Source: an uncultured Chloroflexia bacterium
Lineage (GTDB): Bacteria; Chloroflexota; Anaerolineae; DAOTYC01
NCBI GenBank assembly: GCA_963843645.1
Contig: CAWJLE010000002.1
Location: 189,909 to 253,908, forward strand
DNA: 64,000 nt
Direction: 5' to 3'
A program made the translations under genes and the position numbers. How positions within the stretch are numbered: position 1 is the stretch's first letter; each line of letters begins with the position of its first letter. The notes below the pieces were generated by a model. That model saw nothing but the letters and a program-made list of their open reading frames with translations, ran no database searches and was not told the origin of the DNA. Below are positions 3,928-63,935 of the stretch, piece by piece.

Positions 3928-3975
3928 ACGGGCATTGGAACGTTTGAACGTTTGAACGTTTGAACGTTGGACACC
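3928..3975. repeat. tandem GAACGTTT octamer repeats (4 copies) downstream of the 2940 gene and upstream of the 4024 gene
   Basis: ggaacgtttgaacgtttgaacgtttgaacgttgga read directly. Confidence 0.55.
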
Positions 3976-5232: not shown

Positions 5233-5339
5233 CCGCAGATGAACGCAGATAAAAGCAGATAAAGACAAGAAACAGAAACGACAAAAAAACAATTGCTTTT
5301 GATCTGTCGTTATCTGTGTTCATCTGCGTTCATCTGCGG
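5233..5339. repeat. AT-rich iteron-like palindromic element (GCAGAT[A/G]AA short repeats in inverted arms around an A-rich spacer)
   Basis: cgcagatgaacgcagataaaagcagataaagacaag … ctgtcgttatctgtgttcatctgcgttcatctgcgg. Related copies at 43555-43650 and 45558-45728. Confidence 0.6.
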
Positions 5340-8771: not shown

Positions 8772-9719
8772 ATGAGCGACAAGCAGAACGATGATATCCT
8801 GCAGTCCACGACGCCCAAACCTTTTGTGTTCGTCTTGATGCCCTTTGATCGGTCATTTGACGACATTTACAAGTTCGGAATTAAGGGCGCAGCGGAGCAA
8901 GTTGGAGCCTATGCAGAGCGGGTAGACGAGCAGATCTTCACTGAAGGTATTCTCGACAGGATCTTCAGCGAGATCAACAAGGCTGATGTAGTGGTTGCAG
9001 ATATGACAGGGCGAAATCCCAACGTGTTCTACGAGGTCGGCTATGCCCACGCTCTGGGCAAGATCGTGCTGCTGGTGACAAGAGACGCCAACGACATTCC
9101 CTTTGATCTTCAGCACCAACAGCACACGGTCTATGGCGGGAGCATCGACACATTGAAGAGCGAGCTGGCTAGAAAGCTGCGCTGGGCAATTACCAATCCG
9201 AAGGCAAGATCAGCCGACGTCGTCGTCACTCTGCAGTTCTCGCGACTCGATTCACGCCCGCCCAAAGCGTATATACTTGAGGTGCATATAGCGAATGATG
9301 GGCTTGAGACCATAGAACGCTTCAGTCTGCAGATTGAAGCCCCGCACTATCAACCCAGTAGGGAACCAAAGAATGTCCGTACAGCCGATCTGAGTCTTAG
9401 AGACCATGCTCTTGACCGCTGTGAGACTGAGTTTCTCTCGTTCCCAGACTCGACAAGGACGTCTTTGAAAATGACTTATTGGTCTCCGCATCCTCTCCTG
9501 CCTGGGCAGCGGATCTCGTTAACCAGCAAATTCCGCTACGGACTCGAGTTCCGTGGATTCGACAAGGCCCAGGTCCTCGAGTGGTTCAGAGTCACGTCAA
9601 GCCTAGACAACTCCAAGTTGTCTTGGTCTCTCTATTGTGATCGCCGACCTTCCACAAACGGGCAGCTTTCACTTTCCGAACTATTCGAGGCCGAGCCGTC
9701 GACCTCGGTGTGGCTCTAG
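8772..9719 (+). CDS. nucleoside 2-deoxyribosyltransferase-like / TIR-like (SLOG-superfamily) N-glycosidase-motif protein with unknown ~170-aa C-terminal domain
   Basis: FVFVLMPFD…ADVVVADMTGRNPNVFYEVGYAHALGKIVLLV matches the NDT/DNPH1-type motif (β1-Asp; catalytic Glu in the E-x-G-Y-A motif). GGAGG RBS. Low GC. Confidence 0.65.
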   Translation: MSDKQNDDILQSTTPKPFVFVLMPFDRSFDDIYKFGIKGAAEQVGAYAERVDEQIFTEGILDRIFSEINKADVVVADMTGRNPNVFYEVGYAHALGKIVLLVTRDANDIPFDLQHQQHTVYGGSIDTLKSELARKLRWAITNPKARSADVVVTLQFSRLDSRPPKAYILEVHIANDGLETIERFSLQIEAPHYQPSREPKNVRTADLSLRDHALDRCETEFLSFPDSTRTSLKMTYWSPHPLLPGQRISLTSKFRYGLEFRGFDKAQVLEWFRVTSSLDNSKLSWSLYCDRRPSTNGQLSLSELFEAEPSTSVWL

Positions 9720-10037
9720 TGCGCCCTCATGGGTTCTCGGATCCCGCCTTCGCCATGGCTGTTTCGACGACGTGATCACATTAACCTGATGTGGCCGACT
9801 CATGACATGGGCTCGACTTGTGGATCGCTCAGATGTCGCAGATGTGTGTGAATCCGTGGTGCCGCAACTGGGGCGAAGCAAGCAGAAAAGACGTGTCCTC
9901 GCGGTGCAGCGCAGCCGCGCCTAGAGCTGAGGCCGGGGCAATTGTTGCCGTTTCGAGCGGACAGTGTTCCTGAACGAGGGCCAGTCTCAGTGTCGCCGGA
10001 CGATGCCCGCCACGCCAGCCCGAAAGGGAGATAAGCC

Positions 10038-14641: not shown

Positions 14642-14785
14642 GGTACTGGGGCGACCAAGGTCGCGTCTGGATTACGAAGCCCGCCTCCGCGGGCTACGGC
14701 AACAGGAAGAACGGTCCTTCTGTCGCCGCAGCCCGCGGAGGCGGGCTTCGTAGTCCAGACGCGACCTTGGTCGCCCCGTACCGCC
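14642..14785. repeat. MITE-like palindromic repeat, family P1 (…GGTCGCGTCTGGATTACGAAGCCCGCCTCCGCGGGCTA… hairpin)
   Basis: ~145-bp near-perfect palindrome. Other copies at 55170-55325 and 63621-63775. Spurious ORFs translate it as …RSRLDYEARLRGL…. Confidence 0.75.
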
Positions 14786-15719: not shown

Positions 15720-15769
15720 TCTAACCGCCGGTGCCCGATCGTTCCGCCCTGCGCGCGCCGCGCACCGCC

Positions 15770-16030
15770 GCCCTTCGCCGTCGCGCCGCCGCCCCTCGCC
15801 GTCGCACCGCCGCCCCTCGCTGTCGCGCCGCCGCCCCCGAATACTGTCACCCTGAGGAAGCGCCGTATGCGACCGAAGGGTCTCGCGCGCGAAAGACGAG
15901 CCCGTCTAGGTCGACCAAAAGGGCTCGTCTCTCGCGCGCGAGACCCTTCGGTCGCATACGACGCTCCCTCAGGGTGACAGTAATCGAGGGCGGCGGTGCG
16001 CGACGAGGGGCGGCGGTGCGACGGCGCGAC
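15770..16030. repeat. composite palindromic repeat, family P2 core (GTCACCCTGAGGAAGCGCCGTATGCGACCGAAGGGTCTCGCGCGCGA…) flanked by inverted 21-bp tandem repeats
   Basis: Core hairpin 15846-15981. Left arm has 3× CGCCGCCCCTCGCCGTCGCGC; right arm has their reverse complements. Related copies at 27228-27410 and 63361-63520. Confidence 0.7.
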
Positions 16031-21132: not shown

Positions 21133-21478
21133 AACCAATCCTCCTTGGAAGAGACGAGCGCTTCCACTCGGGGTGGGCCGGGCTGAGCGGCGCCAGGGGG
21201 ACCGATCGACGAAGGACGGGTACTTCCCAATCGCAGGGTGGCGGTCACGACGTAGGGGAGGGTGGCGAGGGATGGCGGCTGTCATCGTGCACGTCGTTCC
21301 TGTGAATTCACGTATATACCGCTTCATTATATTGGCGTTCGCCGATGCGCGGCTATGACGCGCGTCACCCGCGCGCGCCTCGAGGGTGCGGCACCGAGAG
21401 CCGCACCCTCCGGGCCGAACGCCGGGGGGCTACGGTCTCGCCCATAGTCGGATTCACCCGACGCTCGGCAACCTGACT

Positions 21479-21640
21479 CCTACCCACTTTGCTCACTCAG
21501 CCGCCGCAGACCTCTCTCCCGGCCTCTCCCCTGCAAAGGGAGAGGAGAACGTCAACCGATTTGCTCCTCTCCCTTTGCAGGGGAGAGGCCGGGAGAGAGG
21601 TCTGCGGCGGCTGAGTGAGCAAAGTGGGTAGGAGTCAGCT
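21479..21640. repeat. MITE-like palindromic repeat, family P3 (…CTCTCCCGGCCTCTCCCCTGCAAAGGGAGAGGAGAAC… hairpin)
   Basis: ~160-bp near-perfect palindrome. Other copies at 58546-58700 and 60492-60592. Confidence 0.75.
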
Positions 21641-23993: not shown

Positions 23994-24545
23994 ATGAAGA
24001 TGCTGGCGGTGGTGGGCAGTCCGCGGAAGCGCGGCAATACGGACGTCCTGATGGACGCGGTGATCCGGGGGGCGACGGAAAACGGGGCGGAGGTCGAAAA
24101 AGTGTTTCTGCCCGACCTCGACATCGGGCCATGCGATGCGTGTGACGCGTGCCGCAAGAGCTTCCGCTGCGTGGTCCGGGACGATATGATCGCCCTGTAC
24201 GAGAAGTTGTTCGCGAGCGACGTCTGGGTGCTCGGGACGCCGATCTATTGGTGGGGGCCGAGCGCGCAGCTCAAGGCGTTCGTGGACCGATGGTATGCGT
24301 TCAGCGGCGACGAGGAAGGGCGCGTCAGCGGGAAGCGGGCGGCCCTGGTGGCGGCGTTCGAGGAATCGGATCCTGCGACGGCCCGCCACACCGTGGGGAT
24401 GCTGCAGGACACGTTCGACTACCTGAAGATCGACTTCGTCGATCAGGTGCTCGTCACGGCCGGGCCGCGGGGCGAGGTGGCGAAGAACCAGTCCGCGCTG
24501 GATCGCGCGTCCGCGCTGGGGAAGAGGCTGGCGGCCAGGAAGTGA
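23994..24545 (+). CDS. NADPH-dependent FMN reductase / flavodoxin-like fold protein
   Basis: MKMLAVVGSPRKRGNTDVLMDAV…SDVWVLGTPIYWWGPSAQLKAFVDR. GGGAGG RBS. Start computed in-frame within ORF 23268..24545. Confidence 0.85.
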   Translation: MKMLAVVGSPRKRGNTDVLMDAVIRGATENGAEVEKVFLPDLDIGPCDACDACRKSFRCVVRDDMIALYEKLFASDVWVLGTPIYWWGPSAQLKAFVDRWYAFSGDEEGRVSGKRAALVAAFEESDPATARHTVGMLQDTFDYLKIDFVDQVLVTAGPRGEVAKNQSALDRASALGKRLAARK

Positions 24546-24569: not shown

Positions 24570-25825
24570 TGGCGGCCTGAGGATTTTATCCTCAGGCTCA
24601 CGTGCCAAAGCCTGCTGAAGCAGGCTGCAACACGGCGGACGAGCCAGCCTGGGCGATTTTAGAGATTAGCGCGGAAGTGAGACGCTGGCCGGCTTCGGAC
24701 CGCACCGTGGCCGGGCGTGAACCCCGACATCCGCGGGGCGGGTGCTTCCGTGTCATTCTGCCAGCCTGCTTCAGCAGGCTGCGACACGGCGGACGAGCCA
24801 GCTTGGGCGATTTAAGAGATTAGCGCGGAAGTGCGTCGCGTGCGTCTCAAGGCAAGCTGCAATGAGCCGAACGAGCGGCCGTGAGACGCTAACCGGCTTG
24901 GCGGCCCGCCCGGCGATGAAGTCGCCGGGCTACACAACAGCGTCCGATGAATCGGACTTTCGGCTGCTCTGAATTCCGATTCATCGGACGCTGTCATGTA
25001 GCCCGGCGACTTTATCGCCGGGCGGGCGTCTTCGGATCGCACGGTGGCCGGGCGTCTTCGGATCGCACCGTGGCCGGGCGCCTTCGGACTGCACCGTGGC
25101 CGGCGTGAACCCCGACATCCGCGGGGCGGGTACCTCCGCGTCATTCTGCCAGCCCGCTTCAGCAGGTTGCGACACGGCGGACGAGCCAGCTTGGGCGATT
25201 TAAGAGATTAGCGCGGAAGTGCATCGTGTGCGTCTCGAGGCAAGCTGCAATGAGCCGAACGAGCGGCCGTGAGACGCTAACCGGCTTGGCGGCCCGCCCG
25301 GCGACGGAACGTGTCGCCGGGCGAGCGTCTTCGGACTGCACCGTGGCCGGGCGCCTTCGGACCGCACCGCGGCCGGGCGTCTTCGGACTGCACCGCGGCC
25401 GGGCGTCTTCGGACCGCACCGTGGTCGGCGTGAACCCTCCCATCCGCGGGGCGGGTACCTCCGCGTCATTCTGCAACCTGCTTCAGCAGGCTGCAACACG
25501 ATGGACGAGCCTGCCTAGGCGATTTAAGACATTGGCGCGGAAGTGAGTCGCGTGCGTCTCGAGGCAAGCTGCAATGAGCTGAACGAGCGGCCGTGAGACG
25601 CTAACCGGCTTGGCGGCCCGACCGGCGAAAAGTCGCCGGGCGGGCGTCTTCGGACTGCACCGTGGCCGGGCGCCTTCGGATCGCACCGTGGCCGGGCGTC
25701 TTCGGACTGCACCGCGGCCGGGCGTGAACCCCGACGTCCGCGGGGCGGGTACCTCCGCGTCATTCTGCCAGCCTGCTTCAGCAGGCTTTCGCTCCGTAGC
25801 CTGAGGATTTATCCTCAGGTCCCGA
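24570..25825. repeat. 1.27-kb non-coding array of nested palindromic and tandem repeats (4-5 degenerate higher-order units, each with a CCTGCT(TCA/GAA)GCAGG hairpin, a conserved ~60-nt segment, 28-bp tandem sub-repeats and palindromes), bounded by CCTGAGGAT(T)TTATCCTCAGG palindromes
   Basis: Repeated strings read directly at ~24612, 24767, 25155, 25469 and 25771. 28-bp units CGTCTTCGGA(C/T)(T/C)GCACCGTGGCCGGGCG ×3 per unit. All overlapping ORFs merely translate repeats. Confidence 0.7.
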
Positions 25826-26044
25826 CGGCGCCCCTCAGGTCCCCGCTGCGGCTGCGGTACCCCTCAGGTCCCCGCCGCGCCACCCCACAGGTCCCCACGG
25901 CGGCCTGCCCGGGCGCCTGACCCGTATGCGCGGCATCATAGCAGCGGACGGACGCCGACGGTATAGTGGAGAGAGTTGAGCGCCTTGGATTCGGTTTGGC
26001 CGTGCCGAGGGGCAGGCCTCTTCTCTTTGCGCCGGAGGTCCGTC

Positions 26045-27222
26045 ATGAACGCGATCCGTCCCCCAACCCGTCCGCTCCGTATCGCCGCGCTGTTGGCCGC
26101 CGTCCTGATGGCCCTCGCGCCCGCTCGCCCGAGCTTCGTCGCCGCGTCGCAGCCCCTGCCGGACCTCGTCGTCACCGACCTGAAGCTCATGGACGCGGGC
26201 GGCGGCACGGCGCTCGACATCCAGTTCAGTGTCAAAAACCAGGGCACCGCCGATGCTCCGGCCTCGTACGCGGAGATCGACGTGGCCGGACGGGCGATCC
26301 AGAACTACCCGGTCGGCCCGCTCCCCGTCGGCACGTCGCAGGCCGTCGAGCTGAAGACCAGCTACCCCGAAAACAAGGTCAAAGTGACCATCATCGCCGA
26401 CTCGAAGAAGAAGATCGACGAACTGCACGAGAGCAACAACAAATCCAGCGCGCAGTTCGAACCCGCCGCCCGGCCGGACCTGGTCATCGACCGCGTGCAC
26501 ATCGAGCAGACGAAGGTGACGCCGCCGGAGCTGAAGGTGACGATCCGCGTCAAGAACCGGGGCAAAGGCGACGCGGCCGGCCTGACCGTGAAAGCCTGGC
26601 AGCCGGAGATCCCTGAGACGGTCTGGGTCCTGGGTTTCAACACCGGCAAGCCGCTGAAGGGCGGCCATTCGCGGGAGGACTCGTTCACCGCGACGCCCTT
26701 CAACAATCCCGTCACGTTCAAGGCGAAGGTGATCCCCAACCCCGGCGTCAACGATTCGAACCCGAATGACAAGCAGGGCTCCGGCAGCCTCAAGCTGAAG
26801 GCCGGCTCCAAGTCGCCCGATCTCGTCGTTCAGATCAACAAGATCGAGCTCGACCCGTCCATGACCAACGCTCAAGGCAAGCTCTGGGCGTTTACTTTGC
26901 CATCCTCAACACCGGCGGCAAGGACGTGACGTCACCGATTGCGGTCCGGTACCACTTCGCGAACAACTTGCTGCCCGACGTGCAGGACACGATCATCCCG
27001 AACGGCCTCCACGCCGGCGAGGTGACCGACTGGGTCCATCCGCAGGAGCTGGGCGCCACCCCGCAGGATTTCTACGGCACCCAGCTCGTGGTGACTCTCG
27101 ACCCCGGCAACACCATCAGCGAGTCCGACAAGGCCAACAATACCGCCACCGCCACCATTCCGAATCCGATCAGGAAGGTCCCCATCACGAATCCCCTCCC
27201 TACGCTTGAAAACAAGCCGTAG
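26045..27222 (+). pseudogene. secreted CARDB-domain (cell-adhesion-related) repeat protein, frameshift near 26885
   Basis: Signal peptide MNAIRPPTRPLRIAALLAAVLMALA. PDLVV…N.G…ESNN CARDB repeats. Third repeat continues in frame 26926..27222. Confidence 0.65.
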
Positions 27223-27227
27223 GCGGG

Positions 27228-27410
27228 GCGGCAGACCTCTCGAAAACTGTCACCCGAGGAGGACGGCCGTATCGTCCGACGAGGGGTCTCGCGCGCGAGG
27301 GAGGACATTGTCAATCGCACGACTGGGGCGTCCTTGTCGCGCGCGAGACCCTTCGTCGGACGATACGGCCGTCCTCCTCAGGGTGACAGTTTTCGAGAGG
27401 TCTCCCGCCC
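27228..27410. repeat. MITE-like palindromic repeat, family P2 copy
   Basis: …TGTCACCCGAGGAGGACGGCCGTATCGTCCGACGAGGGGTCTCGCGCGCGAGGGAGGACATTGTCAATCGCACGACTGGGG… palindrome. Confidence 0.7.
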
Positions 27411-29796: not shown

Positions 29797-29832
29797 GGAC
29801 GGCAGACCTCTCTCAAGAACAGGGCAATCGCA

Positions 29833-29975
29833 TCTTAGCCGGGCCCGCCCGGCGATAAAGTCGCCGGGCTATACGACAGCGTCCGATGAATCGGACTTCA
29901 GAGCAGCCAGAAGTCCGATTCATCGGACGCTGTCATGTAGCCCGGCGACTTTATCGCCGGGCGGGCCGGCTAAGA
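29833..29975. repeat. palindromic repeat, family P5 (…CGCCGGGCTA(T/C)ACAACAGCGTCCGATGAATCGGACTT…); second copy at 24905-25030
   Basis: Both copies read directly. Near-perfect hairpin. Confidence 0.7.
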
Positions 29976-29995
29976 TGCGATTGCCCTGCCCAACA

Positions 29996-51764: not shown

Positions 51765-53490
51765 AGCCGGCCCCCCGGACTTCTGTCATTCTGAGCTGCA
51801 ATATGGTCCGCGGCGGACCACTGATTGGGCAAGAAACAGACTCGCGGGCGGTGAGGTGTATGTGTATAATGGGGGGCGAGTTCAGACAGTTAAGACCGGC
51901 GCCTCATTGGTGCGCACGAGCCCGTCTCTGAGCTTGGTTCCGACTATTAGTGACTCATTGATTGGTGGCGTAGACCCCGGTTAGTAGCATTCCGAGTTCG
52001 TACGAGATAGTCGGGTCTGGACTCTGTGCAGCGAGATATTTAACCTAGAGTAGAGGTGAGTCCATGAGTCAGAAGACCAGTCGTCGCCCCCGCGTGGCGC
52101 CCGCCCCCGTGTTGGAACAGTTGAATCTCGATGCCGCCGGGCTAGATATCGGCGCCAGCGAGATCTACGCCTGTGTGCCGGGGGACCGGACCGACCAGCC
52201 GATTCGGGTGTTTCGCACGTATACGGCCAGCCTGCATGAGTTAGCCGATTGGCTGGCCCAATGTGGGATCAAAACCGTGGCGATGGAATCGACGGGCGTG
52301 TATTGGATCGCGGTGTACAACATCTTGGAAGCGCGTGGCTTCGAAGTCTATCTGGTCAATGCCCGCCACCTCAAGAACGTGCCAGGGCGCAAGTCGGATG
52401 TATCGGATTGCGAGTGGTTGCAGCAACTGCACAGTCACGGCTTGTTGCGGGCCTCGTTTCAGCCACCGGCCGAGATCTGTGCGTTGCGGACCCTGGCGCG
52501 CCAGCGCGAGAGCCTTATCAAGTCGCAGGCGAGCCATATTCAGCACATGCAGAAAGCGTTGCAAGTGATGAACGTCAAACTGAGCGAGGTCGTGTCGGAC
52601 ATCACGGGCCTGACCGGGCAGCGCATCATCCGGGCCATCCTGGCGGGCGAGCACGAGCCCGGCCGCTTGGCGCAGTTGCGTGACCCGAAGTGTGCCAAGA
52701 GCGAGGCGGAGTTCGCCCTGGCGCTGGCCGGCACCTACCAGTCCGAGCAGGTGTTCGTCCTGCAGCAAGCTGTGGCGCAATACGATTTCTTCCAGGGCCA
52801 ACTCCAGGAGTGTGATGCGCAACTGGAGGCCGTGTACGCCCAACTGCCACCGGCCACGCCGGGCGCCAACTGCCCGCCCCCAGCGGCCCGAACGACCAAA
52901 CGGCGCAAAAACCAAGCTCACTTTGATCTGTCGGGCCACCTGTATCAGCTGACCGGCGTGGACCTGACGGCCATTGATGGCCTGGGGGCCTTAACCGTCC
53001 ACACGATCATCTCCGAAGTGGGGGTCGACCTGACCAAATGGGAGACGGCCAAACACTTCACGTCCTGGCTCGGCCTGGCGCCGTGTCCGGAGAAATCGGC
53101 CGGCCAGGTCCTCCATACGGGCACCAAGAAGACCGACAACCGGGCCAATCAGGCCTTCCGCCTGGCCGCGCAGAGTGTGAGCCGCAGCCAGTCGTCGATC
53201 GGGGCCTGTTACCGCCGCTGGCGCGCCCGCTTTGGTGCCGCCGAAGCCATCACTGCCACGGCCCACAAATTGGCCCGCATCTTTTACAAACTGCTCAAGG
53301 ATCACGTGCCCTACAAGGATCCGGGCCCAGACGACTACGACCGCAAACACCGGGCCCGCACCATTCGCAACTTGGAACGCAAGGCCAGCGCCGTGGGTAT
53401 GCGCGTGGTACCGATCGACATACCTCTTGTTTCTTAGTAGGAGCGCCGTTCAGCGACGAAGAATGACAGAAGTCCGGGGGGCCGGCTCGC
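51765..53490 (+). mobile_element. IS110-family insertion sequence with short terminal inverted repeats
   Basis: GCCGGCCCCCCGGACTTCTGTCATTC at 51768 and its reverse complement GAATGACAGAAGTCCGGGGGGCCGGC at 53458 bracket the transposase gene. Confidence 0.75.
52064..53437 (+). CDS. IS110-family transposase
   Basis: N-terminal DEDD-type motif LDIGASEIYACV. C-terminal Transposase_20 motif …FTSWLGLAPCPEKSAGQV…. Confidence 0.9.
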   Translation: MSQKTSRRPRVAPAPVLEQLNLDAAGLDIGASEIYACVPGDRTDQPIRVFRTYTASLHELADWLAQCGIKTVAMESTGVYWIAVYNILEARGFEVYLVNARHLKNVPGRKSDVSDCEWLQQLHSHGLLRASFQPPAEICALRTLARQRESLIKSQASHIQHMQKALQVMNVKLSEVVSDITGLTGQRIIRAILAGEHEPGRLAQLRDPKCAKSEAEFALALAGTYQSEQVFVLQQAVAQYDFFQGQLQECDAQLEAVYAQLPPATPGANCPPPAARTTKRRKNQAHFDLSGHLYQLTGVDLTAIDGLGALTVHTIISEVGVDLTKWETAKHFTSWLGLAPCPEKSAGQVLHTGTKKTDNRANQAFRLAAQSVSRSQSSIGACYRRWRARFGAAEAITATAHKLARIFYKLLKDHVPYKDPGPDDYDRKHRARTIRNLERKASAVGMRVVPIDIPLVS

Positions 53491-55160: not shown

Positions 55161-55169
55161 TGGGCCCGC

Positions 55170-55325
55170 CGGCGTGTTCCAGGGCGACCGAGGTCGCGGC
55201 TGGACTACGAAGCCCGCCTCCGCGGGCTAACGGCAACGGAAATGCAACGTTTCCTGCCATTGCCGTTAGCCCGCGGAGGCGGGCTTCGTAGTCCAGCCGC
55301 GACCTCGGTCGCCCTGGAACACGCC
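55170..55325. repeat. MITE-like palindromic repeat, family P1 copy
   Basis: …GGTCGCGGCTGGACTACGAAGCCCGCCTCCGCGGGCTAACGGCAACGG… palindrome. Confidence 0.75.
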
Positions 55326-55384
55326 GGGCGGTCCGCGCCATCTGTGGCACCGTCGCCTTGGACCAAACGATGCCCGCGGGGTGA

Positions 55385-55526: not shown

Positions 55527-57005
55527 ATGAAAAAGCCGACGATGCATCGATTGGTCGATTGGAAGGCGCATTACGCCGCAGCCCTGAGCGCCGCCGAGGC
55601 GCAGGGGAAGCGGGAATCCCGGATCGCCTGCGGATTCACCAACAACGTCGACGTCCTCCTGAAGCTCGACGGCGACACGCGGCGCGTGCTGCAGGCGATT
55701 GCGTCCGCCGAAGGGCCGCTGGGTCGGCTGCCGGACCGCATTCGAAACCCCGCGGATCTGCTGGACAGTCTGTGGCACCACATGTCCGCCGGCACCGGCG
55801 ACGTGATGGCGATCGATTCGGCCGGGATGGCGCAGTGGATGGAGGACCGTTTCCACGGTCCCTTGCAGCTGGGCGGCACCGGCGCGCAGGCGGCCAACAC
55901 GCTCGCCCACCTGGGTTATCCGTCCTTGCTGCACGTCACCCGGCTGTCCGCGATCGACGCCGGCGTGTATGCGGACGGCGCCAGCGGCGACCACATCGTC
56001 GTCGCCACCGCGGAGGGGCTCCGGCCCCTGGCGCAGGCGGTCCGCGCGGCCGATCGGCCCACGTATCACTTCGTGTTCGAATACCAGACGGGCGACGAGC
56101 TGCGCGTGGGCGAACGTGCCGTCACCGCGGCCCGGGCCAACCGCATCATCACGGGCTACGATCCGATCAACGCCGTGCTGCCCATCGATCCCCTGTTCAT
56201 GAAAGCCGTCGCCGACCCTGATTCGCGGGTCGATCGTGTTTTGATCTCCGGCTACACCGACCTGAAGGATACGGACGTGGCCCGCGCGCGCATCGCCGAA
56301 ACCGTCGCCTATCTGCACGATCTGCGTCAGCAGCGCCCGGAGCTGCTGTTTCACCTGGAGATGGCGTCGGTCACCGAGGCTGCCGTGATGCGCCCGATCC
56401 TGGACGAGATGGCGCCGCACGCCGATTCCGTCGGCCTGAACGACCAGGAGCTGGCCCTGGCGGCCGAGGCCTGGGGCTGGCCCGAACCCGCAACGCTGGA
56501 CGAGCGCCTCGCCACGCTGCACCGCATGCGCGAGCGGCTGGGCCTGTACGGGAGGGAGACCGGGCAACCACCGGGCGTAGGGGCGACCCTGTGTGGTCGC
56601 CCGCCCGATGGACGGCCGTCCCCCGCCGGCATTCGGCGTGTCAGCATGCACACGCAGGATTACTGCCTGACGCTGACCGACGGCGACGCGGCGGCCGAGC
56701 GGAATGCCCTGCTGTTCGCGTCGCTGGTGGCCGGCACGCGGGCGCGGCTGGGGCGGTTCCCTACGGGGCCGGACCTGCACCAGACGCTCGCGGCCGCGGC
56801 GCCCGGCGAGGCGGGGCTCGAGGCGGAGGAGCAGCTGGCGGGCCGAGTGGGCCTGCACGAGGGTATCGGTCGATACGAAGGCGCGACGCTCGTGTTCGCG
56901 CCGACTTTGAGCGTGTCCCATCCCGCGGGCACCGTGGGCCTGGGCGACAGCTTCACTGCCGGCGTTCTCGTCTTCCTCGACGACAGCCGGCTGCACGGGA
57001 ATTGA
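55527..57005 (+). CDS. ADP-dependent glucokinase/phosphofructokinase-family (ribokinase-superfamily) sugar kinase
   Basis: LQLGGTGAQAANTLAHLG, …SVGLNDQELALAAE… (NxxE motif) and C-terminal GLGDSFTAG match ADP_PFK_GK-type motifs. Confidence 0.55.
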   Translation: MKKPTMHRLVDWKAHYAAALSAAEAQGKRESRIACGFTNNVDVLLKLDGDTRRVLQAIASAEGPLGRLPDRIRNPADLLDSLWHHMSAGTGDVMAIDSAGMAQWMEDRFHGPLQLGGTGAQAANTLAHLGYPSLLHVTRLSAIDAGVYADGASGDHIVVATAEGLRPLAQAVRAADRPTYHFVFEYQTGDELRVGERAVTAARANRIITGYDPINAVLPIDPLFMKAVADPDSRVDRVLISGYTDLKDTDVARARIAETVAYLHDLRQQRPELLFHLEMASVTEAAVMRPILDEMAPHADSVGLNDQELALAAEAWGWPEPATLDERLATLHRMRERLGLYGRETGQPPGVGATLCGRPPDGRPSPAGIRRVSMHTQDYCLTLTDGDAAAERNALLFASLVAGTRARLGRFPTGPDLHQTLAAAAPGEAGLEAEEQLAGRVGLHEGIGRYEGATLVFAPTLSVSHPAGTVGLGDSFTAGVLVFLDDSRLHGN

Positions 57006-58545: not shown

Positions 58546-58700
58546 TCCCTCCACGCAGGGGGACCTCTCTCCCGCCTCGGCGGACCCCTCTCCCACCCTC
58601 TCCCCCACAGGGAGAGAGGAGAACATCAACAGCATGGCTCCTCTCTCCCTGTGGGGGAGAGGGTGGGAGAGGGGTCCCCCTGCGTGGAGGGGTTCCGACC
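58546..58700. repeat. MITE-like palindromic repeat, family P3 copy (intercistronic)
   Basis: …CTCTCCCACCCTCTCCCCCACAGGGAGAGAGGAGAAC… palindrome. Confidence 0.75.
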
Positions 58701-60491: not shown

Positions 60492-60592
60492 GACCTCTCT
60501 CCCGGCCTCTCCCCTGAGAAGGGAGAGGAGAACGACAACGACCTTCTCCTCTCCCTTCTCAGGGGAGAGGCCGGGAGAGAGGTCTGCCGCTC
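60492..60592. repeat. MITE-like palindromic repeat, family P3 copy (between convergent genes; may act as terminator)
   Basis: acctctctcccggcctctcccctgagaagggagaggagaacgacaacgaccttctcctctcccttctcaggggagaggccgggagagaggt. Confidence 0.75.
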
Positions 60593-63249: not shown

Positions 63250-63360
63250 GGTAGTTTCCTCCCGGGACCGAGATGAATGCGTGGCTATTCTACCACAAAC
63301 GGCGGGACTACTGAAGTCTTCGATTGAACCGGGTGTATCCCCGATTTTGGGTGAGATCGT

Positions 63361-63520
63361 GGCCGCGACTTATGTCACCCTGAGGGAGCGCCGTTTGCGA
63401 CCGAAGGGTCTCGCGCGCGAGAAAGGACATTGTCAATCGCACGACTGGGGACATTCCTTCTCGCGCGCTAGACCCTTCGGTCGCAAACGGCGCTCCCTCA
63501 GGGTGACATAAGTCGCAGCC
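63361..63520. repeat. MITE-like palindromic repeat, family P2 copy
   Basis: …ATGTCACCCTGAGGGAGCGCCGTTTGCGACCGAAGGGTCTCGCGCGCGAGAAAGGACATTGTCAATCGCACGACTGGGG…. Confidence 0.75.
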
Positions 63521-63935
63521 GCGATCTCGCCCATAATCGGGGATTTGCCCTGGGCGAGTGACTTCTCTCCGGGCGGTCTCCGATGCCCGCCGGTCCAGGC
63601 GCCGGGCCGGTCTCCGATGCCCGCCGGTCCAGGGCGACCAAGGTCGCGTCTGGATTACGAAGCCCGCCTCCGCGGGCTAACGACAACGAAAATGCAATTT
63701 CCCTGTCGTTGCCGTTAGCCCGCGGAGGCGGGCTTCGTAATCCAGACGCGACCTTGGTCGCCCTGGACCGGCGGGCATCGGAGACCGGCCCGGCGCCTAG
63801 ACCGGCGGGCATCGGAGACCGCCCGGCGCCTAGACCGGCGGGCATCGGAGACCGGCCCGGCGTCTAGACCGGCGGGCATCGGAGACCGGCCCGGCGTCTA
63901 GACCGGCGGGCATCGGAGACCGCCCGGAGAGAAGT
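63512..63935. repeat. composite ~420-bp palindrome: family P1 core (63621-63775) flanked by 2+5 tandem ~34-bp repeats (AGACCGGCGGGCATCGGAGACCGGCCCGGCGTCT) inside an outer inverted repeat
   Basis: Nested inverted and tandem repeats read directly. Confidence 0.7.

Follow-up and report, generated by a model that had tools for sequence, protein, structure and literature searches.

The stretch of DNA analysed here (hereafter the window) comprises 64,000 nucleotides of contig CAWJLE010000002.1 from an uncultured Chloroflexia bacterium (positions 189,909 to 253,908 of the contig; coordinates below are those of the window unless another locus is named). In the window, a gene for an FMN-reductase/flavodoxin-like protein, which ends with its stop codon at 24545 (Pfam FMN_red, 9e-23), is separated by a gap of about 1.5 kb from a gene for a CARDB-domain protein, which starts with ATG at 26046 (Pfam CARDB, 3e-22). 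The gap hosts a non-coding repeat array of about 1.25 kb (24573-25822), composed of four tandem units of 154, 388, 324 and 295 bp. A first-pass annotation, made from the sequence alone, had placed between these two genes an array of nested, palindromic repeats organized in higher-order units of about 155-390 bp. The place of the array, its flanking genes, its palindromic character and the size of its units are all as it described: the array was recovered both through its direct-repeat families and by Tandem Repeats Finder (324-bp period, score 1137), and the four units found measure 154-388 bp.

Anatomy of the array

The array and its immediate surroundings are composed of the following features, in which P1 and P2 denote the two recurrent hairpins described below:

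24573-24626, minus strand: left bounding module, with P1 at 24576-24596, the foot CTCAC at 24597-24601 (reverse complement GTGAG) and P2 at 24609-24626, loop TGAA
24627-24780, plus strand: unit 0 (body and P2), 154 bp, internally deleted, with one 26-nt sub-repeat at about 24688-24713 and without a D-type hairpin
24781-25168, plus strand: unit 1 (body and P2), 388 bp, with the full 126-nt family D inverted dimer and three 26-nt sub-repeats (25023-25103)
24904-25027, no strand assigned: family D inverted dimer in unit 1, an inverted repeat with 56-nt arms that are 93% complementary
25169-25492, plus strand: unit 2 (body and P2), 324 bp, with a collapsed single D-type hairpin at 25292-25326 and four 26-nt sub-repeats (25318-25428)
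25493-25787, plus strand: unit 3 (body and P2), 295 bp, with a collapsed D-type hairpin at 25616-25645 and three 26-nt sub-repeats (25641-25725)
25770-25822, plus strand: right bounding module, with P2 at 25770-25787, loop TTCA, the end of the linker, GTAG, at 25796-25799 and P1 at 25800-25819
25813-25904, plus strand: CCTCAGGTCCCC minisatellite, four direct copies spaced by 20, 29 and 23 nt, with its start inside the 3' arm of the right P1

Aligned bases are 88-93% identical in all pairs of units, and the same range holds for unit 0 against the others over its 154 aligned bases. In addition to the 324-bp period, Tandem Repeats Finder reported three runs with a 26-bp period, and the direct-repeat families detected in the array by a repeat finder are 203, 130, 77, 35 and 19 nt long. 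A conserved 77-nt block with the AT-rich core GGCGATTT(A/T)AGAGATTAGCGCGGAAGTG is present in four copies (0 expected from shuffles), the hairpin AGCCTGC-TTCA/TGAA-GCAGGCT (P2) in five, and the 26-bp sub-repeat in 9-11; motif counts in the array far exceed the shuffled expectation. Three 28-bp sub-repeats had previously been assigned to each unit. Sub-repeats are indeed present, but their period is 26 bp and their copy number is 1, 3, 4 and 3 in units 0, 1, 2 and 3, respectively. Each of them starts with GCCGGGCG, an octamer of the 3' arm of the neighbouring hairpin. The units differ in length for three reasons, namely, the internal deletion in unit 0, the copy number of the 26-nt sub-repeat and a 126-nt palindrome (24902-25027), which is confined to unit 1, in line with the earlier description of a palindrome in one unit.

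The palindrome CCTGAGGAT(T)TTATCCTCAGG (P1) occurs at both ends of the array (24576-24596 and 25800-25819), as had been noted in the first-pass annotation. The inner P2 hairpin at the left end (24609-24626) has the loop TGAA and is in reverse-complement orientation relative to every other copy, the loop of which reads TTCA. A 52-nt inverted repeat (P1, 12 nt, P2) therefore encloses the array, its two copies being 83% identical over the aligned stretch. At the right end, the terminal P2 of unit 3 (25770-25787) doubles as the P2 of the bounding module. No array-specific motif was found elsewhere in the 64-kb window, except for the 126-nt palindrome, a second copy of which (94% identical) lies about 5 kb from the array, at 29842-29968. 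The CCTCAGGTCCCC repeats (four matches against 0.56 expected) are located between the array and the promoter region of the CARDB gene. A promoter-like block upstream of the downstream gene, GTATGCGC..(G)TCATAGC..N17-22..TATAGT, TATACT or TATAAT, is common to relatives (window 25925-25975; locus L002, 2160-2215; locus L001, 11040-11090); it lies outside the array and is unaffected by it.

The array is neither a coding region nor an array of clustered regularly interspaced short palindromic repeats (CRISPR), and on both points the earlier annotation was right. Open reading frames (ORFs) of 79-110 aa recur on the minus strand of units 1-3. Rich in Arg and Pro, they read through the repeats without a Shine-Dalgarno sequence ahead of them, and they stay open only because stop codons are rare; five array ORF frames, concatenated and searched against 5.8 billion proteins, yielded no relative. 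A coding gene was rejected on this evidence. As for CRISPR, the stretches between the repeats are themselves repeated, there are no unique spacers, and the sole Rfam CRISPR-DR match has E = 2.2.

The bounding palindromes as copies of a dispersed two-hairpin module

Each end of the array corresponds to a 53-nt module with two hairpins, of which P2 varies in sequence and P1 (CCTGAGGAT..ATCCTCAGG) is conserved; the roughly 10 nt that link P2 to P1 end in GT(G)AG. P1 is extragenic and has a 9-bp stem and a loop of 2-3 nt, which places it among the short palindromes (20-40 nt) typical of repetitive extragenic palindromes (REPs). Metagenomes were scanned for P1 with the exact pattern AGCCTGAGGAT-N2-4-ATCCTCAGG, which retrieved 45 contigs with a GC content of 37-69% and a median length of about 3 kb. 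In most of these contigs (labelled L below, as are the other loci compared) P1 is preceded, at a distance of 8-13 nt, by a second hairpin of constant shape but varying sequence. We aligned 32 modules, both array ends of the window included. P1 shows no variation in this alignment because the search pattern fixed it. In P2, by contrast, five of the seven pairs change on both sides, and 95.5% of the cells are paired; when the pairing is shifted by one column, the paired fraction falls to 38-51%. The covariation score of P2 is 0.288 versus 0.098 in shuffles, none of which (0 of 500) reached 0.288. The palindromes bounding the array thus belong to a conserved two-hairpin module with a wide distribution among bacteria.

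A covariance model (R1) built from the same 32 modules produced 115 matches in the 45 contigs and, at E<=0.01, none in 841 kb of unrelated prokaryotic loci used as a negative control. The commonest layout of the matches, with at least 20 cases, is a minus-strand module with a plus-strand module directly after it, -18 to +25 nt away. In this, its usual form, the module makes up an inverted dimer (P1-P2'-centre-P2-P1) that spans about 125 nt and has a centre of at most 25 nt. 'Empty' dimers of this kind are found in L106 (1699-1819) and L097 (1343-1461). R1 scores 60 bits on the left array end (minus strand) and 65 bits on the right one (plus strand), the sequences of both being part of the training set. 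The left module is supported independently by the left half of the L106 dimer, which is nearly identical to it, and by a minus-strand P2 match with one mismatch. At the right end, the GTAG-tagged hairpin of P1 was also detected independently of R1, and the same type of P2 and P1 is present in L105, L106, L118 and L126. The centre of the module pair in the window measures 1,143 nt, versus about 15 nt in a typical dimer; at this distance the two array ends do not constitute a simple hairpin.

Elsewhere, the module also forms tandem arrays, with periods of 148 nt in L120 (three units), 361 nt in L107, 171 nt in L130 and 192 nt in Nostoc (two units). Typical REPs carry a conserved GT[AG]G tetranucleotide at the 5' foot of the hairpin. 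In the module, the foot reads GTAG at the right P1 and in family D (see below), GTGAG at the left array end, and GTGAG, ATGAG, ATCAG, CTTAG and others in the metagenomic and Nostoc members. A literature search with CCTGAGGAT and ATCCTCAGG returned only unrelated primer and short hairpin RNA matches, and the P1 motif is absent from the motifs listed in PMC3733652.

Unit 1 contains, in its palindrome, another dimer of this module type, which belongs to a sister family, designated D. Its plan is GCCCGGCGA-N5-TCGCCGGGC, CTAC, about 8 nt, GTCCGAT-GAA-TCGGAC and a 12-nt centre, followed by the mirror image with GTAG. The REP hairpin of family D is extragenic, with a 9-bp stem and a 5-nt loop, and the arms (56-58 nt) are 93-97% complementary, so that it is an inverted doublet of the kind known as REPIN (REP doublet forming a hairpin). 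R1 matches both arms of the unit-1 palindrome (24906-24958, minus strand; 24973-25025, plus strand). The four family D arms of the two copies, none of which was in the training set, score 25-29 bits (E of about 1e-5 to 1e-4). Within 64 kb there are thus two copies of family D and one P1/P2 pair. In viral contigs, neither a family D pattern nor the array-end pattern had a match. At 29820-29990, the second family D dimer itself sits in the centre of another palindrome (CAGGGCAATCGCATCTTAGCCGG ... CCGGCTAAGATGCGATTGCCCTG), and insertion into hairpin loops therefore seems to recur.

The window is unusually rich in palindromes, with 12 long intergenic ones belonging to at least four families. At least three families (A-C) are additional to those described above; their arms are 41-121 nt long and 92-100% complementary:

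14648-14777, 55162-55334 and 63569-63826: family A palindromes, the arms of which are weakly matched by R1 (E of about 0.05)
15824-16000, 27253-27382 and 63337-63544: family B palindromes
21473-21638, 58579-58680 and 60492-60584: family C palindromes

A family A palindrome is flanked in mirror orientation by 34-nt tandem repeats at 63569-63633 and 63762-63927 (2 and 5 copies, respectively), and a 21-nt tandem repeat of 4 copies (15744-15837) adjoins a family B palindrome. These minisatellites display the same pattern of growth at hairpin flanks as the array. Intergenic tandem runs of 7-10 nt (CAGCTGT, AGCGATC, GAACGTTT and ATCTGCGTTC, at 197-235, 2069-2106, 3938-3968 and 5302-5338) add to the repeat-rich character of the genome. 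Finally, a GTAG-tagged hairpin (GTAG GGGCGACC CTGTGT GGTCGCCC) at 56577-56602 is located inside a long ORF (55527-57005) and may represent an intragenic REP-like insertion.

Y1 transposase genes and syntenic relatives

In four of the 45 contigs (L102, L122, L120 and L098) the modules directly adjoin genes for Y1 (HUH-tyrosine, IS200-like) transposases; the L102 protein, for example, matches Pfam Y1_Tnp at 4e-25 and the NCBIfam IS200/IS605 equivalog with 75 bits. As an independent test, we gathered homologues of the L122 protein and picked two loci by the protein alone, one in Nostoc sp. PCC 7107 and one in a Chloroflexi contig (L134). Both contain modules at most 120 nt from the Y1 gene. In Nostoc, two tandem 192-nt module-dimer units (9601-9962) are followed by the Y1 gene from 10001, whereas in L134 a module begins 30 nt past the Y1 stop codon and three more copies are present, four in 12 kb. 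The module was thus found within about 150 nt of the Y1 gene in all six loci examined. Two modules, 520-740 bp from each other, enclose the gene in L102, L122 and L098, and the flanking modules are in direct orientation whichever the direction of the gene (forward in L102, reverse in L122).

The six Y1 proteins are 140-156 aa long and share the motifs DH[ILV]H, WQRGYG and Y[VI]xxQKxHH. Based on these motifs and their size, they match the signature of TnpAY1 subclass 1.2. This subclass has been characterized as low-copy, lacking the properties of insertion sequences (ISs), generally without terminal hairpins, and present in Cyanobacteria such as Nostoc; its entry for repeats reads 'REP: no' (Quentin et al. 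2018, PMC6006769). The module-linked proteins resemble the subclass in signature and in their occurrence in Nostoc, and differ from its description in that a module is found near all six genes and that the genes also come from Chloroflexi and other contigs. No later work on subclass 1.2 was found in our literature search. That the Y1 genes found here match a subclass recorded without REPs is one mildly new point.

Three of the six loci deserve a comment. The Y1 gene beside the three-unit module array of L120 (533-922, minus strand) has an in-frame stop codon in the N-terminal motif (HLV*STKNR) and hence may be a pseudogene. In L134 (4600-11459) the Y1 gene is located between hsdS and hsdR of a type I restriction-modification system, and in L102 (6204-9999) it lies just 3' of a 993-aa ORF which, by sequence inspection, resembles a DNA methyltransferase; this restriction-modification setting may be a coincidence. 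In the window itself, neither an intact Y1 gene nor a degraded one within the array was detected, and the array shows no similarity to tnpA or tnpB. The only transposase gene recognised in the window is of the IS110 family (52064-53437; DEDD_Tnp_IS110, 1e-22; Transposase_20, 6e-14).

A syntenic relative from a JGI metagenome (L002) encodes an FMN-reductase that is 80% identical to the one in the window, with the same order of FMN_red and CARDB genes. Its gap is 332 bp long and contains no array. At 2003-2065 it carries instead a 21-codon remnant of the N-terminus of a subclass-1.2-like Y1 gene, MAHWRLFYHLVWTTKNREPWL (71% identical to L122, E = 9e-6), followed by a palindrome with 23-nt arms that starts with TGAGGAT, like P1. 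The Y1 remnant suggests that this intergenic site has repeatedly hosted such elements in the lineage. In other relatives (82-87% identity) no array was found; their contigs are non-syntenic or very short.

As an alternative to REPs served by a domesticated single-copy Y1 enzyme, the modules might be viewed as terminal parts of an active insertion sequence of the IS200 type and of derivatives without a gene, similar to palindrome-associated transposable elements (PATEs) or miniature inverted-repeat transposable elements (MITEs), the array being a cluster of miniature elements. NCBIfam indeed places the adjoining Y1 proteins in the IS200/IS605 transposase equivalog, and a gene between modules 520-740 bp apart (L102, L122, L098) has the size of IS200. 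Nevertheless, we consider this explanation unlikely. PATEs, which are small, non-coding, intergenic, gene-less derivatives of IS200/IS605 with hairpin ends recognised by the Y1 transposase, keep both ends oriented alike, as in the parent IS, whereas the elements described here are inverted dimers. Same-orientation hairpins bounding a gene or a core, as in IS200/IS605 or PATEs, were not found at the array, the ends of which are inverted, and the dominant inverted dimer likewise differs from the arrangement of IS200 ends. Where modules do flank a gene in direct orientation, they do so irrespective of gene direction (L102, L122). The Y---Q--HH / WQ signature points to subclass 1.2, low-copy and without IS properties (PMC6006769), and the units in the window are tandem copies of one unit and not separate insertions. 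The decayed MITE cluster, which comes closest to the array among the three explanations put forward in the first-pass annotation, holds in part: a dispersed module associated with transposases accounts for the end palindromes and for the palindrome of unit 1, but the units are tandem duplicates of one composite unit, and independent insertions are not the main source of the cluster.

Origin of the array and its alternatives

Taken together, the array is one inverted dimer with an expanded 1,143-nt centre, in unit 1 of which a second, sister-family dimer is nested. In our view it is probably a selfish repetitive cluster of the type represented by REPs, REPINs and bacterial interspersed mosaic elements (BIMEs), amplified locally by slippage or recombination. 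This locus and the other module loci resemble REPINs and their REP-associated tyrosine transposases (RAYTs) in several respects: extragenic hairpins are inversely paired into a long hairpin and, at loci outside the window, linked to a Y1 HUH gene flanked by them, ordered clusters repeat the pair together with its flank, pairs decay to single hairpins, and the hairpins of the right P1 and of family D, though not that of the left end, have a GTAG foot. The differences are also clear. Each arm is a two-hairpin module (P2 and P1) and not one REP; GTAG is not strictly kept at the module foot, which also reads GTGAG or ATGAG; the module-linked Y1 proteins are IS200-like, with the subclass-1.2 signature, and do not belong to the classical RAYT groups; and the tandem units lie inside one pair, with the inner hairpin only at their junctions. 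The BIMEs of E. coli and the REPtron around tnpA-REP (Ton-Hoang et al. 2012, PMC3333891) are also close. BIMEs likewise are intergenic mosaics in which REPs alternate in orientation, with short linker motifs between them and some tandem iteration, and they too lie downstream of genes and between co-directional ORFs. Their period, however, does not exceed about 100 bp, their linker motifs are defined, and integration host factor or gyrase is known to bind them, whereas the array has a period of about 300 bp, a unique body, a nested second element and minisatellites. In Pseudomonas fluorescens SBW25, ordered tandem clusters of REPINs that include flanking sequence have been described (16 clusters; Bertels and Rainey 2011, PMC3116915); the largest is just over 700 bp, compared with 1.25 kb and units of about 300 bp here. 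REP dimers whose spacers are structured, and others whose partners are separated by inserted DNA, are known as well (PMC3733652).

The following history can be proposed. Inverted module pairs would be non-autonomous elements, the single-stranded DNA hairpins of which are recognised and moved by a Y1 enzyme encoded elsewhere in the genome. That Y1 enzymes might handle dimers in this way is suggested by analogy with REPIN/RAYT and IS200/IS608 (PMC3116915; PMC6006769; PMC3333891). The centre of one pair, that is, the loop of the extruded hairpin, may then have gained extra DNA, including the family D pair, and the segment composed of body and P2 may have been duplicated to four tandem copies through slipped-strand mispairing or unequal recombination between copies of P2. 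The inverted left P2 matches the direct P2s at 16 of 18 positions and so could have acted as the first direct repeat. The 26-nt minisatellites presumably grew by slippage from the 3' arm of the nested hairpin, and the CCTCAGGTCCCC repeats (25813-25904) would likewise have begun in the 3' arm of the right P1. Later decay would have left only a single hairpin where units 2 and 3 once had the nested pair, cut out the middle part of unit 0 and let the units drift to 88-93% identity. Such a collapse of the nested dimer is the outcome expected of deletion between the 9-nt direct repeats within it, and the same route has been noted for 'double-foot' REPs (PMC6006769). Most likely, the array has no dedicated cellular function and is neutral or selfish; at most, it would act as a hairpin-rich barrier or terminator between the co-directional FMN-reductase and CARDB genes. 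A recombination hotspot, another of the earlier suggestions, is plausible as a consequence of the array.

A bolder version of the selfish-cluster explanation is conceivable, and we put it forward tentatively, considering it less likely to be right than wrong. The module might be the cognate REP/REPIN of TnpAY1 subclass 1.2, with P1 of the form CC-N6-A..T-N6-GG. In that case, the tandem arrays, and the minisatellites that begin at 3' arms of hairpins, both in the window and beside the Y1 genes of Nostoc and L120, might be direct products of single-stranded DNA cleavage and ligation by the enzyme, and not of passive slippage; and the locus would be a gene-less relic of a 'REPtron'.

Several observations weigh against the REP/REPIN/BIME-type explanation as a whole. 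The 64-kb window lacks a Y1 gene, and within it the exact P1/P2 type is confined to the two array ends. A cognate Y1 enzyme and genome-wide dispersal of P1/P2 are predictions for this organism, and mobility of the module is a prediction for every member. The unit body (about 250 nt; pattern GATTTWAGASATTRGCGCGGAAG) had no match in genome and metagenome contigs, nor did it have any in viral contigs and plasmids. At the unit junctions inside the array P2 occurs without P1, which differs from the tandem arrays of L120, L107 and Nostoc. Finally, the units are about equally diverged (roughly 92% identity) and fairly old for a 300-bp tandem repeat in bacteria; such even and old divergence could hint at retention by selection.

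Alternatively, the array might consist of tandem genes for small structured RNAs, such as are known to form arrays in other bacteria, or encode a long structured non-coding RNA. It contains many hairpins, and the bounding module covaries across organisms, with G-U pairs on one strand. The first-pass annotation had also proposed an array of non-coding RNAs, together with a search for structured RNA, and this proposal found no support. Searches against Rfam 15 produced no matches at gathering score either in the window, where the matches listed at E<=10 are chance-level ones on the long palindrome and none is relevant, or in 20 module-bearing loci. Folded as a whole, a unit does not surpass dinucleotide shuffles on either of its strands (z = -0.8 and -0.5). 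In the internal hairpins, substitutions lack a compensating change: P2 of unit 2 (AGCCCGC..GCAGGTT) has one C-A mismatch and one G-T wobble, P2 of unit 3 has an A-C mismatch, and the nested D-type stems of units 2 and 3 have one mismatch each. Moreover, the body is not conserved beyond the locus, and simple scans of the array detected a single terminator-like site, where 1.3 were expected, and no promoter of the sigma-70 type. Accordingly, a known RNA was rejected on the Rfam results, a globally structured RNA on the fold z-scores, and an array of promoters or terminators on the site scans. A hairpin with a UUCG loop in the 26-mer was also considered and rejected, because on inspection it shows no covariation and has an invariant A opposite a C/T position. 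Overall, we regard it as improbable that the array encodes RNAs.

Marginally less probable still is that the array is a set of selected protein-binding sites, its 26-bp repeats resembling iterons, operators or centromere-like sites. Tandem clusters of three to four 26-bp copies do recur from unit to unit, the units are still 88-93% identical and have not collapsed, and the four CCTCAGGTCCCC repeats are located just upstream of the CARDB promoter region. However, there is no adjacent replication, partition or regulator gene for such sites to serve, and the syntenic relative L002 lacks the array altogether. The 26-mer had no match in viral contigs, and the whole array had none in plasmids. Similar minisatellites are found at other palindromes of the window (34-nt, 63569-63927; 21-nt, 15744-15837), which suggests that they are mutational by-products of hairpins and not specific sites. 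An assembly artefact, a repeat mis-joined or inflated, is very improbable even though the source contig appears to be metagenome-assembled and in close relatives the contigs stop just behind the FMN-reductase gene (in L083, 12 nt past the stop codon): between units there are 7-12% substitutions as well as large indels peculiar to single units (palindrome in unit 1 only; 1, 3, 4 and 3 copies of the 26-mer), whereas artefactual duplication yields near-identical copies, and both ends join the conserved flanking genes, and the promoter block common to L002, cleanly.

From a practical standpoint, the array is best masked as repetitive non-coding DNA and not mined for genes or RNAs. The 53-nt covarying module, which has no match in Rfam 15, occurs in contigs of 37-69% GC, including those of Cyanobacteria and Chloroflexi, beside genes of a Y1 subclass that has been called repeat-less. 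If confirmed genome-wide, it would add a REP/REPIN system to the known set and would provide a tractable case of hairpins seeding tandem repeats, through insertion into the loop of a dimer and through growth of minisatellites from hairpin arms.

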